Program-made: the position numbers | Assembly (NCBI GenBank): GCA_965223705.1 | Contig: OZ245015.1 | Location: 3,648,001-3,712,000 of the forward strand | DNA length: 64,000 nucleotides | Direction: 5' to 3' | Source of the DNA: Myxococcota bacterium | GTDB taxonomy: Bacteria > Myxococcota_A > UBA9160 > UBA6930 | Part shown: piece after piece, positions 1 to 42,000 of the stretch | Numbering within the stretch: position 1 is the first letter of the stretch | Layout: each line of letters begins with the position of its first letter

Positions 1-3000
1 GTTGGTCCCGAGAAGAGGTGGATCAGCGGCTCGTGAAGATCATGGCCGAGATTCACACCCGCTGCGTCGAACACGGGCGCTCGTGAAGATCATGGCCGAG
101 ATTCACACCCGCTGCGTCGAACACGGGCGCCAAAACGGACGGGTCAATTACATCGATGGCGCCAACATCGCCGGCTTTCTCAAAGTCGCTGATGCCATGC
201 TCGCGTATGGAGTGGTCTAGAGCACCTAGTTCGTATCTCGACAGTAGTTACTCCCGATCTCTGCGCTGGTTACGTACCGCTGCGTAATGCGATTGCACGT
301 CACCTCGCTGTGTCTCGCGGTGTCAACGCTGGGCCGGAGCAAGTGTTCACAACCGCGGGTGCCGCCCAATCGATCCTTTTGGCTTCAAGGGTTCTGCCCC
401 AACCTGGCGATCTCGCATGGATGGAAAACCCGGGCTGTCCCGTCGCGGGCGCGGCCCTTCGATTCGCCGGGCTACGCACAACGGAAGTTCCTGTAGACCG
501 GGAGGGATTGAACCCGAGCGTTTCGCTCGAACTGCCCAAAGCGAGGCTCGTCTACACAACCACCTCTTACCAATACCCGCTTGGCTTTACGATGTCGATC
601 AAGCGTCGGCTGGATCTACTCGACCGCGCTACCTCCATGCGAGCCTGGATCATCGAGGACGACTACGACGTCGCGTTCCGCTAGCAGGGGCAGCCCTGTG
701 CCCGCGTTCTGCCCCGAGGCGGGCATCCAGGGAGTGCACTCGACCGAGCGTTATTGATCTCGGCCCCTCGTATATAGGGAGTCCCAGCTGCCTACCAAGC
801 AGAGATTCGCTGCTTTTTCGAAACCGGCCCGGCGATGTCGCGAGAACCAGCAGCAAAACCCTGCTCTTCGCCTGAATCATCTGACGTGTCGGCGGCTTAC
901 CCGGCGAAGGTGCGTCTCAGTCGCGCACCAGAAGCGCCTGCACTTATTAGGCGCGGGGCTACAGGGCTGTTCGCATCACTCCAGCGGATGAAATCGAAGG
1001 CCAGGTCGATCCCACCGCCGAGATGATCCCGCGTGGCGATCCGGCCTCTCCCGCGAAGGGCGCGCGCTCCGAACAACGCGTCGTTGACCCGCGCTACCCA
1101 GGATTCGGCCGAGTCATCGTCGCTCGTCACCTCCGCGGGCAGGGCCTGGGGCGCGGCGATCAACGACAAAAAGATGACCAACACGGGCAGTCGTAGCATA
1201 GATATGCCTCCTCAACGTAAACCTGAAGACGAACCCGGTCGTCAGCCGGCGAACTCTCAGACAGACCTTCCCTTCGGTGGAACGAAGAGCTCGGGCTACG
1301 GATGCGCGCTCCGCTAGTTAGGAAGGATGATCTCCACGCGCCGGTTTTGCTGTCGACCCGCCGGCGTGTCGTTGGACGCAACGGGAGCGCTTTCGCCCCA
1401 GCCGCGCGTGGTCACCCGGTCGGGCTGCACCCCGCGGCGCACGAGATAGTTGGCTACCGCGTCGGCGCGCCGACGGGAAAGCGATCGGTTGTAGGCCCCG
1501 CTTCCGAGCCCGTCCGTGTGTCCTTCGACGAGCACGCGTTGCTCCGGCCGCTCGGCGAGGACATGGGCCACGCGATCGAGAACCCGCTGCCCACCAGGCT
1601 TGAGTGCGGCTTCGTCGAGGGGGAAGAGAATGTCGCTCAGGGTGAGGACCAGACCGCGATCGGTTTTCTGGCTCCGCAACGCCTCGAGTTCACCCTCGAG
1701 CTCCACGAGACGCTGCTCGGCCGTCAGCGCTCGTACTCGCTCGGACTCCACCTCTCGGGACCTCGCGTCGAGCCGTATGCGGTCCCTCCGATCTCCCAAC
1801 ATCCCCAGCGAAGCCCGCAACATCGAGCGATCGGCGGCGGCGCGTGCGACTTCGAGCTTGCGATCGACGAGGTATGCCAGATGCTCGAGTTCCTTTTCGG
1901 ACGCGCCGGCCCGCTCCGCCCGCTCGAGGCGATCGAGCGCACGTTTCGCCTCGTAGACCGCGACCTCTGCGTGCTCTTCCGTCTTCGGGTCGTTCTCGGT
2001 CGCGGCTACGCGCTGACGGGCATCGACCACGATGGGGTTCGGACCGGAGGCGCAACCGGCCGCTAGGGTCAGGATCGCCACCGCGGCGATGGCGATTCTA
2101 TTGGGGCGAATCATGAGTGATCTCTCCTTCGAGGGCTCGCACCGTCTCTTCGAGCTCGGTCACCGCCTCTCGCATGTGTTCCCGCTCGGCCTCCGCAGAC
2201 GCCAATTCCGCATCAGCCCGCGCCTTCTCAGCGTGGCGCCGGGCCTCGTCATAGCGTTCATCTCGAGCCGCCTGTTTGGCGCGCTGGAGGTGGTCTTCCG
2301 CTTTGCGCAGCGGTAGCGGCGCCGCGTCTGCCGCGCCGTCCTGCCGCGCCGTGCGAATCTGCGCCTCGGCACGAGCCAAGGCCTCGTCCGGCGGAGGCGT
2401 CGATGCGCAGGCGCCGAGAAACATGACCACTACACTGGCGATCACGGGTGTCCACAACTTCCACGAACCATTCGGTCTCATAATCTCTCCTCTGAGAAGA
2501 CCTCGCGGGCGCGCACGATGAAGCGCTGAGGCGCGCGTCCCACCCAGTAGAACGGATGACAAGTCACAAGGGTCAGCGTCGGAGATTCCGTCGGTTCGAG
2601 AACTTGAACAGCCTCGGGGTCGACGACGATCGTACGTTCGACGGCAAAGGTCCGGATCCGACCGGCGGTTTCGATGGTGAAGCGATCTCCCTCGCGAACG
2701 TGGCGTAGCGCTCGAAAGAAGCCGTCCCGGTGACCGGCGATTCCGATGTTCCCGGTCGAGGAAGTGAGGGGTGCCGTTCCCTCGATGCGACCCACGCCTC
2801 GGTTCAGGGACCACTCCCCGGTCCCCTCGAGGATGAGCGCGTCGATTCGCCCGTCAGCGCTCCGTAGGATGCCACCTCGGGGCGACGCGTCGCTGCGGTC
2901 GAGGGAACGGCGAAAGCGATCGATGCGACTGGGAGACCACTCGCTCATGTCTGTTGCGTCCGGGGGGTCGGTCCTTCGAACCGTGGGGTTCGGGACGGAG

Positions 3001-39000: not shown

Positions 39001-42000
39001 TTCACACGACTTAGCATCAGGGCCTTCCCCGTGACTCCATTTGGGTGTGGGGTCCCGGCGACCGCGCGTAACGAGTCGCTTTTGAACCAACATTTTCTGC
39101 AGGAGATCATTGTCGGTGGGAGCGCCCACACTCGACACGGCTTGGCGCACGGTGGTCGAGTGGCCGAACTGTGAAACCGAGTCTCAGGTCGGTTGATAGC
39201 TATAGAGGGGCTCTGGAATTTGTGAGTCCCGTGTGAGTCCCGGCTATTTTCGAGTTCGGAAAACCCAACAATTCCGGATACTTAGTGGTGGAGGCGGCGG
39301 GAATCGAATCCGTCGCCTGTCTCGCCGGCGGTTGTTTCTCGCAGGCCGGAGTCAAGGCTCAGGCGCTTAGCCGGTCCGGAACACACCTGGTAAACTTTCC
39401 CATGTGGACGACCCGAACGAATCGAGATCCCCCGGGGCAGTCTCGCGAGCTCTCCTGAGCGCTGGGGCGCGCGTACTCCGCCCGCTTGTTCACCTGCTCA
39501 TCGCGAATCAGGTGACGTTTCCCGCGCTCGCCAAGATGTTGAAGGGTCTCTACGTGGAAGTCGCCCGAGAGGACTTTCGCCTCGACGACCGACCGATGAG
39601 TCAGAGTAGAGTTTCGATTCTTACAGGCGTACACCGCAAAGATGTCCGGAGCCTGTGGGCAGAGCCTTCTCCGTCATCCGCCGCACCTGAGAGCGTCTCG
39701 CTGGGCTCCCAAGTCGTGATCCTCTGGATGACCGATCCTCGCTTTACAACCGCCGACGGAAAACCCCGTCCGCTAGCACGATCCAAAGAGTCGACAGACG
39801 CGCCCGGCTTCGACGATCTCGTAACAGCCGTAACCCAAGACGTGTGGCCCCGCTCAATTCTCGACGAGTGGCTTCGCCTTGGCGTCGCAGAGATTGATGC
39901 GGATGGGAACGTTGTCTTGGCCCGCGACGCATACGTACCCGAGCGCGGCTTTGACGAGAAGGTGTTTTTTCTCGGGCGTAACGTTGGCGATCACTTGTCA
40001 GCTGCGTCCGCGAACGTTCTTGGACGAGCAGAGCCCTTTCTCGAGCGCGAAGTAAACTATTTGCAGCTCACTCCTACCTCTGTGCGCGAGCTTTCGTCTC
40101 TCGCACGCGAGATCGGTTCCGATGCCCTTGAGCAAATCAACAGAAAGGGACACGAGCTAAAGAAGCGCGACGCCGACGACTCATCGGCAGACCAGCGAAT
40201 CGCTTTTGGAGTTTATTTTTACTCCGAGCAAGCGCCCTCTGAAGACGACGAGGGTGAAGCGTGACGACCCGATTGCCGAAGCCCGCGCTCTTGCTGGCCA
40301 TCGCGCTGATCGTGGTCGCAGCGCCTCAAGGAAGCCGCGCCGCGTGTCCGGACGTGCTCATTCAGGGCGATCCCGAAGGCATCGGTGGAACGGGTTACGG
40401 CGGTGACCAGGGCACCGGCGGAACGGGCTACGGAGGCGACGAAGGAATTGGTGGAACAGGACAGAGACCAGGGGATGAGGGTCCTGGGGGTACCGGCATC
40501 TTCGGAACGATCACGGGTTTTGGATCGATCTGCGTCAACGGCTTGCAGGTGGACTACGAACCTTCGACACCGGTAGCTGTCGACGGGCTTCCGGCCTCGG
40601 CCAATGCGCTCAAGGTCGGAGACACCGTGTGGGTTGAAGCGGACCGCCGTGGAAAGCAATTGCGCGCCCGAAAGATCCATGTGCAGTCTGTCCTTGTCGG
40701 TCCGGTTGATTCCACATCACCGGGCTCACGAGAGTTGCGCGTTATGGGAACCGCGGTTTCCCTGGGGCCGGGTACTGTGTTTGCAGATCGCGCGACTGGG
40801 CGATCTCTCACCCGTGCTGAAGTCTCTAACGCCACCGTAGCCGTGCGAGGACTCATGGGACCCTCCGGTGCTGTCGTCGCGAGTCGCGTCGAACGAGTTC
40901 CCTCTGAAACACCTGCTCGTGCGTTTGGCCGAATTTCGCGGCGAGGGAGTGTGAAAATCGGCGGGATCGAAGTGTCAGGGAGAGCGCCGATCCAGCCTAC
41001 AGGTGCTTTGGTCGTCGCGGAGGGGCGCTGGTCGCGAACGCAACGGCGAATTGATGTCACCGATGTTTCGGACGCTTGGTCGGGGTCGAAGAACGCGCGA
41101 GAACTGTCGCTCGAAGGCCTCGTGCTCGACAAGACAAGTGGAGCGATCGAACTCGCCTATGGAAACGTCACGGCTCAGCGCGCCGAAAGCCTTACCGGAA
41201 TTCGCGCAGGCGATCGCGTCGTCGTGCGAGCACGTCCCACAGGCCCGGGCCGCTTCGATGCACTTGAAGTTCGGCGAGTGAGGGTGAGTCCTGAGGGGAC
41301 GAGATTCCGGACAAGGGGATCTCGGGCCCGCGACGAAGAAATCGACTCGTCAGACGAACAGTCCGATGACCGATCCGGGCGCGGCCGGTCCGATCGCTCG
41401 GATCGAACGGAGCGTTCGGAGCGAGCAGATCGGGCCGAGCGATCCGAAAGGTCCGAACGCGCTGAAAGACCCGAGCGATCGGAACGGCCTGAGCGTCCAG
41501 AACGGGCAGAACGCCCTGAAAGACCGGAACGACCTGAACGGACCGAACGTCCTGAAAGACCGGAGCGTGCAGAACGACCTGAACGCGCTGGACGGGACTA
41601 GTTCGCCCCGAGGAGCTCCAACTCTCGCTTCGCGTCAGCTGCCCCGGGATCCAATTTGAGCGCCCGACGAAAAGCGTCTCGCGCCTCGTCGTTACGACTT
41701 TGTTGGGCGAACAACCTTCCGAGATTGAACCAGGCGTCGGTGTCCCTAGGGTCTCGATCGACGACTCGACGGTACTCGTCCTCCGCTTCAACAAGGCGGC
41801 CTTGCTGAACCAAGACACGAGCGAGGTTGAAACTCGCATGGGGATGACGGGGCGCAACGGCGAGGACCTTTCGGTAGGTCTCTTCGGCTTCAGCCCAAAG
41901 GCCGCGACGAGCCAGGACCACACCCAAGTTGTGGCGCGCAGAAACGAACTCCTCATCTTCGACTAGCACGCGCTCGTAGTACCGCATGGCGTCTTCGTCA

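Follow-up and report, generated by a model that had tools for sequence, protein, structure and literature searches.

Which transcriptional machinery runs a dense block of stress-protection genes in this Myxococcota bacterium, and does it stand in for a dedicated stress sigma factor? General stress responses depend on RpoS in gamma- and betaproteobacteria, on SigB in Firmicutes and on PhyR-NepR-EcfG in alphaproteobacteria, and in these systems a sigma-70-family factor is released from an anti-sigma factor or stabilised against proteolysis. The window analysed here, a 64,000-nt stretch of contig OZ245015.1 (C1), had been read in an initial annotation as holding one of four stress-gene islands, the others lying at 1.82 Mb, at 4.52 Mb and on contig C2. 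From the genes present, the motif statistics, conservation and the distribution of sites, we assign a probability of about 0.65 to the reading that a local activator runs a sigma-54-dependent regulon in the window, made up of genes for envelope, osmotic, oxidative and desiccation-type protection.

The Pfam profile search bore out the claim that classical stress genes are packed into the window island, a stress-protection block of ~35 kb at 1.3-38.2 kb. The families detected were OmpA/DUF4398, sortase, EncFtn and encapsulin, a single-domain response regulator, an SLC12 transporter, Pmp3 (two), CsbD, DUF1328 (two), dodecin, YflT, Usp, catalase, proteins with one, two, four and six BON domains, BON-MscS, MscS (three), Fe/Mn-SOD, PRC, DUF2254, FMN reductase, YtxH-SRPBCC, holin-X, PLD, DUF4112 and LpxR. 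The regulators are an RsbRD_N-HisKA-HATPase_c kinase and an NtrC-type activator (REC-AAA+-HTH_8). An integrase lies near the island, as noted earlier, and is found with an AAA_25 gene 3-6 kb to its left. The features, with predicted sigma-54 promoters and candidate enhancers, are as follows.

1314..3194, minus strand: operon of sortase (2478-3194), DUF4398 (2098-2481) and DUF4398-OmpA (1314-2114) genes (Pfam)
3195-3210 (minus) and 3219-3234 (plus): back-to-back sigma-54 promoter pair, each 9/11, both kept in the C2 copy
3284..5077, plus: operon of a 206-aa exported protein, EncFtn and encapsulin (Pfam), behind promoter 3219+
5089..5488, minus: single-domain response regulator (Pfam), promoter 5473-5488 kept on C2
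5521..7913, minus: SLC12-type cation-chloride transporter (Pfam), promoter 7898-7913 (motif scan)
7976..7988, no strand: enhancer palindrome TGTAAGCGGTACA between divergent promoters 7898- and 8028+, its centre 69 and 46 nt, respectively, from their -24 elements
8028..9359, plus: promoter 8028-8043, 411-aa protein without Pfam family, 85-aa Cys-rich ORF
9716..10298, plus: promoter 9716-9731 (kept on C2), Pmp3 and a possible downstream BON-domain ORF, its start uncertain because the BON frame scored only as a longer, Pmp3-overlapping ORF (9666-10298)
10309..11151, minus: operon of DUF1328, CsbD and a 126-aa protein, promoter 11085-11100 (11/11), enhancer 11139-11151
11703..13418, minus: small membrane ORF and BON x6 protein, promoter 13403-13418
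13434..15107, plus: 58-aa ORF, dodecin, YflT and Usp, promoters 13434, 13542 and 14095
15138..16938, divergent pair: 52-aa ORF (minus), promoter 15325-15340; catalase (plus), promoter 15439-15454
15385-15397: enhancer midway between the promoters of the 52-aa ORF and catalase
16975..18174, minus: cytoplasmic histidine kinase with RsbRD_N-type sensor domain (Pfam)
18175..18195, no strand: perfect 9-3-9 palindrome TTCGTGTAA-TTC-TTACACGAA between kinase and activator genes
18278..19654, plus: NtrC-type enhancer-binding protein, REC-AAA+-HTH_8, GAFTGA at residue 220
19656..21459, plus: promoter 19656-19671 (16-mer identical on C2), MscS, Fe/Mn-SOD
23227..23998, plus: promoter 23227-23242, 66-aa Cys-rich ORF, BON x2 protein
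24148..28315, divergent pair: PRC-barrel (minus), promoter 24552-24567; DUF2254, BON-MscS and MscS (plus), promoter 24652-24667
28331..31251, minus: YtxH-SRPBCC, holin-X, 98-aa protein and FMN reductase, promoter 31152-31167, 2-mismatch palindrome at 31239
31479..33143, minus: operon of DUF1328, BON x4 and a 64-aa protein, promoter 33065-33080 (kept on C2; motif likewise before relatives' DUF1328 genes), 2-mismatch palindrome at 33131
33506..37203, minus: LpxR, DUF4112, 92-aa protein and PLD, promoter 37188-37203
37211..38170, plus: promoter 37211-37226, 203-aa exported protein (a paralogue of the 3284-3904 protein), Pmp3

Promoters were scored against TGGCAC-N5-TTGCW with GG and GC fixed, 11 scored positions and our own gene calls. 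Exact TGGYAY-N5-YTGCH occurred seven times in the window against 0.24 expected from shuffles; matches of at least 9 numbered 23 intergenic and 7 coding between 3195 and 37226, and two beyond 38 kb. The statement that sigma-54 promoters precede most island operons held, with matches before ~20 of ~24 transcription units; the motif scan found none for two window units, the metallophosphoesterase-DAGK unit and the kinase and activator genes themselves. Genome-wide, 67 of 112 matches of at least 10 were intergenic and faced a gene start within 250 nt (29 were coding), whereas the reversed motif gave 9 promoter-position and 129 coding matches among 144. The four islands, ~2% of the DNA, hold 29 of the 67, split as 6, 12 (the window island and the adjacent glutamate dehydrogenase, gdh, site), 8 and 3. 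This enrichment over a backwards control is of the same order as first reported, the counts differing because gene calls and scoring differ. Outside the islands, matches fall before well-established sigma-54-dependent genes (flagellins, a rod protein, FliA, pilins, PilY1 and LpxC), which validates the scan. The genome has one rpoN gene, and a search for a k-mer shared across all promoters found no enrichment.

The earlier description of C2 as similar to the window island agrees with our measurement (74.5-76.6% identical), as does that of its final 2558 nt, which match C1:3390035-3392592 at 99.8% identity. Across six intergenic regions homologous between the window and C2, the flanks have diverged around retained GG and GC elements. 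The -24/-12 sites thus appear to behave as real sigma-54 promoters, a view supported by their strand and position specificity and by their conservation between diverged island copies.

The arrangement extends to relatives. DUF1328 is present in 10 of 60 relatives in the order, and all ten carry a sense -24/-12 motif just upstream of the gene, 25-50 nt before the start codon in nine. Among 26 further loci across the phylum, a sense motif of at least 9 was found in 10 and an antisense motif in 1. Nine relatives' loci contained 42 motifs of at least 10 in 27 kb of intergenic DNA vs. 1 in 128 kb of coding DNA, and none in the reversed-motif control. BON x4, SOD, CsbD, EncFtn, YtxH, holin-X, Usp and OtsAB are common to relatives' loci, and the DUF4398/OmpA pair recurs in metagenome locus L123 downstream of an 11/11 motif. 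Similar islands with an orthologous activator occur in relatives; the window activator is 53-56% identical to theirs and at most 46% identical to other paralogues. A single-domain response regulator also lies beside the activator in L027, L121 and L123. The wiring, as predicted from orthologous activators and sigma-54 motifs, is not private to this genome and is found across the order and in parts of the phylum; the sensor kinase varies between lineages. Horizontal acquisition, proposed at the outset, gains no firm support: an integrase is nearby and no orthologue of the window kinase was found in 60 relatives, but since members of the order share both activator and wiring, the system itself is not foreign.

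Kinase and activator pairs had been claimed for three islands and were present in the window, on C2 and at 4.52 Mb. No hydrophobic segment was found in the window kinase, which is 78% identical to its C2 paralogue; the activators of the two islands are 83% identical. We infer the pairing within the window from adjacency only. The distribution of sites suggests that the activator recognises TGTA-N5-TACA, with TGTAA-N3-TTACA as the best form. Exact TGTA-N5-TACA occurs 10 times in the 4.56-Mb genome, 7 times in or beside islands. At one mismatch or less, all nine genome-wide occurrences of TGTAANNNTTACA are intergenic within islands, which make up 5.3% of the genome's intergenic DNA; five are in the window against 0.09 expected. 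The distance from a palindrome to the -24 element downstream is 45-100 nt, and palindromes often sit halfway between a pair of divergent promoters. Half-site density was 1.87 per kb in enhancer windows vs. 0.31 per kb in background, 0.36 per kb at other sigma-54 promoters and 0 in the 4.52-Mb island. Of 21 window promoters, only ~8 have a palindrome with up to two mismatches in the ~100 nt preceding them. The one at 37297, counted among these, falls inside a coding start.

Five exact palindromes occur in relatives' loci (232 kb), and a sigma-54 motif follows each of them at a distance of 47-149 nt. Seven loci from families f1 and f4 have the palindrome only as four 1-mismatch sites, a count that ranks 55 of 256 control palindromes and is not clearly above chance; the HTH helix of their activators is nearly the same as that of the island activator. 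The evidence supports a shared palindromic enhancer that would tie three of the islands, those in the window, on C2 and at 1.82 Mb, to a single activator family. The palindrome at 18175..18195 is likely an autoregulatory operator; C2 has a palindrome in the same arrangement (position 8209), and in metagenome loci L122 and L123 one lies 84-95 nt before the homologous activator gene.

In the proposed mechanism, the cytoplasmic RsbR-like (RsbRD_N) kinase would phosphorylate the neighbouring activator, which would bind palindromes centred 45-100 nt upstream of -24 and open sigma-54 RNA polymerase complexes at about 20 window-island promoters. The activator likely acts in the same way on the C2 copy, on the 1.82-Mb island, which lacks its own activator, and on the adjacent gdh gene. 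The palindrome between the kinase and activator genes may provide autoregulation, and the response regulator behind a predicted sigma-54 promoter probably gives feedback.

A first alternative is that several signal-specific sigma-54 regulons are merely clustered, with sigma-70-family stress sigmas in co-control, so that sigma-54 adds to them and does not replace them. We consider this unlikely, while giving it more weight than the other alternatives. The single response originally proposed could hold for the islands in the window, on C2 and at 1.82 Mb, which the palindrome joins together with gdh, but not for the 4.52-Mb island. That island is a separate regulon: it encodes an activator of its own (43% identical) and a PAS hybrid kinase, differs in gene set (six Usp, HSP20, CBS, hemerythrin) and showed no TGTA palindrome in the genome-wide scan. 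The incomplete palindrome coverage of window promoters and the ~20 enhancer-binding proteins encoded in the genome also favour clustering; against it, sigma-54 motifs are packed so densely that other promoters would have little intergenic space. The proposal that sigma-54 acts instead of a stress sigma gains from the genome having no RpoS or SigB equivalog above the NCBIfam cut-off and no NepR found, but it stays unproven with respect to RpoS, since the genome has three further RpoD-like paralogues (scoring 233-238 bits against the RpoS model, whose cut-off is 378.7). These could be stationary-phase sigmas, possibly also driving island genes, and there are ~13 ECF sigmas.

More doubtful is that the promoters are real and serve resting-cell differentiation, a cyst- or spore-like dormancy, and not general stress. 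Envelope remodelling genes (LpxR, PLD, sortase, OmpA), encapsulin iron storage and, in relatives, trehalose synthesis would fit. Sigma-54 activators of Myxococcus direct its development and the maturation of its spores, and the parts of papers available to us describe enhancer-binding proteins running the starvation and sporulation cascades of this genus. However, BON/OsmY, CsbD, DUF1328, Usp, catalase, SOD and MscS, the core families here, belong to RpoS, SigB and EcfG regulons of non-sporulating bacteria, Pfam searches saw no sporulation-specific genes in the island, and metagenome contigs of unknown taxa hold similar sets behind sigma-54 motifs. That the motifs are chance or compositional artefacts without promoter function is already very unlikely: promoter calls are all consensus matches, but the position bias (67/112 vs. 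9/144 reversed), the 42 to 1 ratio in relatives, retention between diverged copies and across genera, and the classic targets recovered elsewhere all speak against it.

The favoured sigma-54 stress regulon shares with NtrB/NtrC, ZraS/ZraR and AtoS/AtoC a kinase paired with a REC-AAA+(GAFTGA)-HTH_8 activator, -24/-12 promoters, palindromes ~70-130 bp upstream of the start and autoregulated regulator genes. It differs in that its targets are some 20 general-stress operons, not one metabolic or metal function, and in its RsbRD_N-type sensor, a relative of the domain found at the N-terminus of RsbR in the SigB stressosome. We know of no NtrC or NifA site that TGTA-N5-TACA matches. Overlap with RpoS, SigB and EcfG regulons is strong (OsmY-like BON, CsbD, YtjA/DUF1328, catalase, SOD, Usp, DUF883/holin-X, ferritin-like iron storage and, in relatives, trehalose genes), but island promoters would be read by sigma-54 with an ATP-dependent activator.

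The literature search found no paper on such a sigma-54 stress regulon. In the sections available to us, the NmpRSTU oxygen-utilisation regulon of Myxococcus xanthus has an NtrC-like activator, sigma-54 promoters of CBS-domain and Usp genes, and palindromes of 5-N5-5 geometry near promoters, printed as GCGCA-N5-TGCGC (PMC11841059). As there described, it resembles the 4.52-Mb island in content and differs from the window island in gene set and palindrome. With up to one mismatch, the NmpR site has 71 intergenic matches genome-wide, none in the 4.52-Mb island, and is not island-associated; C2 has one of them, and another, at the island's left edge, has no sigma-54 motif nearby. An in-silico survey spanning several phyla predicted sigma-54 promoters for the MscS and UspA genes of Planctomycetia and, in Myxococcia, for LpxC and other envelope genes; the portion available gives COG-level enrichment only and names no activator, enhancer site, island or general-stress claim (PMC12316311). 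New here are the TGTA-N5-TACA enhancer palindrome, the conservation of the DUF1328 promoter in relatives, and the relatives' islands with an orthologous activator. Sigma-54 with one local activator and a shared palindrome appears to be an uncommon means of controlling so broad a stress response.

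The genome under study (4.56 Mb on two contigs, C1 and C2; 64.7% G+C; 95% complete) was annotated with a codon-usage gene caller trained on the genome itself, which returned 4163 + 19 genes (91% coding). The caller overlooks some small or atypical genes, which were added by hand where a promoter pointed at them. The list of stress genes that the initial annotation had placed at 1.3-38.2 kb of the window (hereafter the window island) was borne out by Pfam, and the protective gene families present are of the general-stress type. These families overlap the known RpoS, SigB and EcfG regulons. 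The features discussed here are as follows (coordinates of the window, C1:3648001-3712000, unless a contig is named).

1.3-38.2 kb: envelope and structural genes, OmpA/DUF4398, sortase, LpxR, PLD, DUF4112, holin-X and YtxH-SRPBCC (Pfam)
1.3-38.2 kb: iron and redox genes, EncFtn plus encapsulin, dodecin, catalase, Fe/Mn-SOD and FMN reductase (Pfam)
1.3-38.2 kb: osmotic genes, an SLC12 transporter, three MscS (one a BON fusion) and two Pmp3 (Pfam)
Window island: small stress proteins, BON (1, 2, 4 and 6 repeats), CsbD, two DUF1328, YflT, Usp, PRC-barrel and DUF2254 (Pfam)
C1:3646617-3648086, straddling the window start: glutamate dehydrogenase gene, counted in the stress set
2478-3194 (-) and C2 14546-15232: sortase genes
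3284-3904 (+), 37283-37894 (+), C2 13843-14433 and C1:1829366-1829956: four paralogues of an exported protein of about 200 aa with no Pfam family
16975-18174 (-): histidine kinase gene
18175-18195: perfect 9-3-9 palindrome, the best site, in the 104-nt kinase-activator gap, which has no sigma-54 motif
18278-19654 (+): gene for the NtrC-type enhancer-binding protein (activator)
61970-62336 (-): tmRNA gene, tag peptide ADDNYALAA

Sigma-54 promoters are recognized by a GG at -24 that is separated by ten bases from a GC at -12, the pair lying shortly upstream of a gene and oriented in its direction. Exact TGGYAY-N5-YTGCH sites numbered 7 in the window compared to 0.24 expected from shuffles. The genome was scanned with TGGCAC-N5-TTGCW, GG and GC being fixed, at a threshold of at least 10/11 genome-wide and at least 9 within the window. 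The genome-wide scan gave 112 matches, of which 67 were intergenic and faced a start codon within 250 nt and 29 were coding, whereas the reversed motif gave 144 matches with only 9 in promoter position and 129 coding. The window island, C2 and two further islands at 1.82 and 4.52 Mb of C1 make up about 2% of the genome and hold 29 of the 67 promoter-position matches, which upholds the promoter enrichment first reported for these islands. Twenty-three intergenic matches scoring at least 9, plus 7 coding ones, lie at 3195-37226 of the window; beyond 38 kb there are only two, one of them inside an uncalled ORF. As read from the map, about 20 of the approximately 24 transcription units of the window island have a correctly oriented site, and six intergenic regions carry back-to-back divergent pairs. 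No site was seen for the kinase, the activator, a metallophosphoesterase-DAGK pair or a putative ORF at 11.2-11.7 kb.

Elsewhere in the genome, matches precede the genes for two flagellins, a rod protein, FliA, pilins, PilY1 and LpxC, and recovery of these genes validates the motif scan. Further matches precede additional Usp, four-repeat BON and CBS genes. The FliA-type sigma gene (C1:2659765-2660625) is itself preceded by a sigma-54 motif and, together with the motifs before flagellin, rod and pilin genes, this implies a flagellar cascade from sigma-54 to FliA. The genome encodes a single RpoN (Sigma54_DBD, 205 bits; C1:1926557-1927033) and about 20 full enhancer-binding proteins.

Each of the four paralogues of the exported protein is preceded by a sigma-54 motif, and a sortase gene lies back to back with an exported-protein gene in what is, judging from LpxR and OmpA, an outer-membrane-bearing bacterium; the exported protein could be a sortase substrate. 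Two small Cys-rich ORFs of 85 and 66 aa with CxC/CxxC runs and without a Pfam family (9102-9359 (+) and 23265-23465 (+)) sit within sigma-54 units and could be metallothionein-like. To the right of the island, at 39404-43490, genes for DUF6502, DUF5666 and a 630-aa TPR protein lie in DNA of lower G+C content (0.59) that has no sigma-54 motifs.

The promoters are conserved where the DNA around them is not. C2 is a rearranged copy of the window island with 74.5-76.6% DNA identity, and at its end it matches C1:3390035-3392592 with 99.8% identity. C2 probably represents a part of the chromosome left unplaced by the assembly. Comparison of the window with C2 at six homologous intergenic regions showed that the GG and GC elements remain aligned although the DNA around them has drifted, in places too far to align. 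Among 60 relatives of the same genus, family and order, a DUF1328 gene was found in 10, all 10 with a sense -24/-12 motif upstream, at 25-50 nt from the start codon in nine. Flanks of 20 kb in nine relatives contained 42 intergenic motifs scoring at least 10 in 27 kb compared to 1 in 128 kb of coding DNA, and the reversed control gave zero matches in these flanks. In gene families the flanks resemble the window island: they encode four-repeat BON, SOD, CsbD, YtxH, EncFtn with or without encapsulin, holin-X, PLD and Usp proteins, and also carry AI-2E transporters and an OtsA/B fusion. Two of the nine sets of flanks include a kinase and activator.

Conservation was less even across the phylum, where 58 of the 301 genomes sampled had a DUF1328 gene. 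In 26 new loci, a motif scoring at least 9 within 200 nt was present in the sense orientation in 10 and in the antisense orientation in one. Positive loci came only from some families (f11, f15, f26 and f42), and no motif was seen at the DUF1328 loci of other families, f19, f33 and f13 among them; thus, the wiring is patchy within the phylum. Neither the DUF1328 gene nor a kinase orthologue was seen in the two genomes of the same genus (G001 and G002), which are 2.1-2.3 Mb in size and 75-87% complete, compared to 4.56 Mb for the genome under study. These two are either poor bins or evidence of a large difference in genome size within the genus.

The kinase and activator genes lie in the middle of the window island and are divergently transcribed. 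The kinase has the Pfam domains RsbRD_N-HisKA-HATPase_c and no hydrophobic segment, and the activator has the arrangement REC-AAA+-HTH_8 (Sigma54_activat, 236 bits) with GAFTGA at residue 220. The two partners differ in their conservation. No orthologue of the RsbRD_N kinase was found in the 60 relatives, which gave only kinase-core matches with 28-36% identity, and the island kinases of relatives are PAS hybrids or other types. In contrast, the activator encoded in two of the relatives' flanks pairs with the window and C2 activators as reciprocal best match at 53-56% identity, other paralogues reaching at most 46%. A protein-cluster look-up of the activator returned only generic NtrC-family clusters. 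A scan of the kinase-activator gap for sigma-70-type promoters found none, but such a scan is uninformative for this lineage.

A candidate enhancer, TGTA-N5-TACA, was found by a relaxed dyad scan of the DNA upstream of island promoters; a scan at a stricter threshold gave nothing. The dyad scan placed this palindrome in 4 of 32 island upstream regions and in none of 819 intergenic background regions. Across the genome there are 10 exact copies of the palindrome, 8 of them intergenic and 7 in or beside islands. The fuller form TGTAANNNTTACA occurs 9 times with at most one mismatch, and all nine are intergenic and within islands, which hold 5.3% of the uncalled DNA; five of these sites are in the window compared to 0.09 expected. 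Palindrome centers lie 45-100 nt upstream of the -24 elements, and three palindromes (7976, 15385 and C1:1826297) lie midway between divergent promoter pairs. The kinase-activator gap of C2 has the same palindrome arrangement as that of the window, and TGTAACGATTACA lies 84-95 nt before the activator gene on two metagenome contigs whose activators are 54-55% identical to that of the window. The loci of relatives contained 5 exact palindromes in 232 kb, all intergenic and 47-149 nt upstream of sigma-54 motifs; they come from three genomes of other families of the order. In enhancer-position windows of the window island, C2 and the 1.82-Mb island, half-sites (TGTAA/TTACA) reached a density of 1.87 per kb, compared to 0.31 per kb in background, with none in those of the 4.52-Mb island and 0.36 per kb at other sigma-54 promoters. 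AT-matched control words were not enriched in the enhancer-position windows.

The palindrome accounts for only part of the island. At up to two mismatches within about 100 nt, no more than about 8 of the 21 window promoters have it, and the palindrome at 37297 falls in a coding start. In the loci of relatives from families f1 and f4, there are only four palindromes with one mismatch, which ranks 55th of 256 control palindromes. Enrichment of 6- to 8-mers across promoters gave nothing convincing, in part because overlapping divergent regions were counted twice. From its position and distribution, we read the palindrome as a candidate binding site of the activator, which may also autoregulate its own gene through the candidate site in the kinase-activator gap. 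The glutamate dehydrogenase gene has a 10/11 sigma-54 motif with a TGTA-N5-TACA palindrome 93 nt upstream; this arrangement would fit a role of glutamate as an osmolyte. In one relative (G036), an 81-aa protein consisting only of HTH_8 (locus L026, 12762-13007) shares 67% identity with the C-terminal end of the window activator, and a sigma-54 motif and a TGTA-N5-TACA palindrome immediately precede its gene. It could represent a DNA-binding domain that acts on its own, or else what is left of a larger gene.

The two other chromosomal islands differ in their regulators. The one at 1.82 Mb, a partial paralogue, lacks a regulator; it encodes catalase, Pmp3, LpxR, CsbD, PRC and two-repeat BON proteins and has the palindrome. 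The 4.52-Mb island (C1:4515001-4541000; loci L082 and L083) encodes six Usp proteins, HSP20, CBS proteins, hemerythrin, a Crp-type regulator and a K+ channel, along with a PAS hybrid kinase and its own activator, which is 43% identical to that of the window. It has no TGTA-N5-TACA palindrome. It is a separate sigma-54 island that by content looks like a hypoxia or energy-stress regulon, resembling the NmpRSTU oxygen regulon of Myxococcus xanthus (PMC11841059). The NmpR site printed there, GCGCA-N5-TGCGC (PMC11841059), showed no association with any of the islands: it had 71 intergenic matches with at most one mismatch and 0 in the 4.52-Mb island. The only matches within island bounds (C2 6583 and C1 3646148) had no sigma-54 motif nearby.

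The initial annotation proposed that sigma-54 acts instead of a dedicated stress sigma factor. NCBIfam models detected one RpoD, one RpoH-like, one FliA-type and about 13 ECF sigma factors. No RpoS equivalog was found, the best non-RpoD paralogues scoring 233-238 bits compared to a cut-off of 378.7 for the RpoS model. SigB (TIGR02941) was likewise not found; the sole match listed, 73.9 bits compared to a cut-off of 315, was to a FliA-like protein. NepR (PF18557) had no match in this 95% complete genome, and the Caulobacter control was positive. Thus, by the sigma factor models and NepR, no RpoS, SigB or EcfG system is recognizable, but the 233-238-bit scores belong to three further RpoD-like proteins, and these paralogues keep the replacement claim open.

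The island was also described as horizontally acquired and duplicated. The duplication, with local shuffling, is evident; foreign origin is not. To the left of the island, at a distance of 3-6 kb, are genes for a phage-type integrase and AAA_25; the G+C content of the island is 0.60-0.64 compared to 0.647 for the genome. The activator and the wiring are common to relatives and there is no tRNA or tmRNA junction at the island edge, both of which argue against foreign origin: a search of the 8 kb to the left of the island found no tRNA, and the tmRNA gene adjoins neither an integrase nor an island junction. The tmRNA was rejected as an integration site, the 24 kb between it and the island containing ordinary metabolic genes and no integrase.

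Beyond the phylum sample, metagenome contigs with activator homologues carry DUF4398-OmpA, DUF883, holin-X, CsbD, DUF3309, Usp, DUF1328 and BON genes, and sigma-54 motifs immediately precede several of these. On one contig (PJUI01000062.1; locus L134, 5190-6647), an rpoN gene lies behind an 11/11 sigma-54 motif, with genes for two enhancer-binding proteins, CsbD, DUF883, DUF3309, Usp and topoisomerase IB in its flanks. The nearest published work is the NmpR report (PMC11841059) and an in-silico survey whose predicted sigma-54 targets in Planctomycetia include MscS and Usp (PMC12316311). Searches of the open-access literature found no description of a general-stress regulon run by sigma-54, although the supplements of the survey may list Myxococcota targets (PMC12316311).

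Gene content, promoter motif, conservation and enhancer data confirm and strengthen the original observation of stress-gene islands with sigma-54 promoters. Sequence evidence gives good support to the predicted mechanism, in which general-stress-type genes form a conserved sigma-54 regulon under a two-component system and a candidate enhancer. More tentatively, with a probability of roughly 0.4, the sigma-54/enhancer-binding-protein circuit may be the master switch of the general stress response (osmotic, oxidative and desiccation) in this myxobacteria-like order and, probably, also in several further phyla of soil and sediment, with the output regulon and activator conserved and the sensor kinases interchangeable. 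Such a circuit would be a fourth architecture beside RpoS, SigB and EcfG, a plausible and testable proposal rather than an established one.

To our knowledge, the organization of the general stress response is largely unknown in most phyla outside the proteobacteria and Firmicutes. Because a sigma-54 promoter stays silent until an ATP-hydrolyzing activator acts on it, a response of this kind would be kept firmly off and then turned on by phosphorylation, not tuned by sigma factor competition. The genome under study makes this idea testable, providing some 20 promoters and a candidate enhancer sequence along with the genes of the kinase and activator, and the same pattern in relatives and metagenome contigs suggests a possibly broad distribution.
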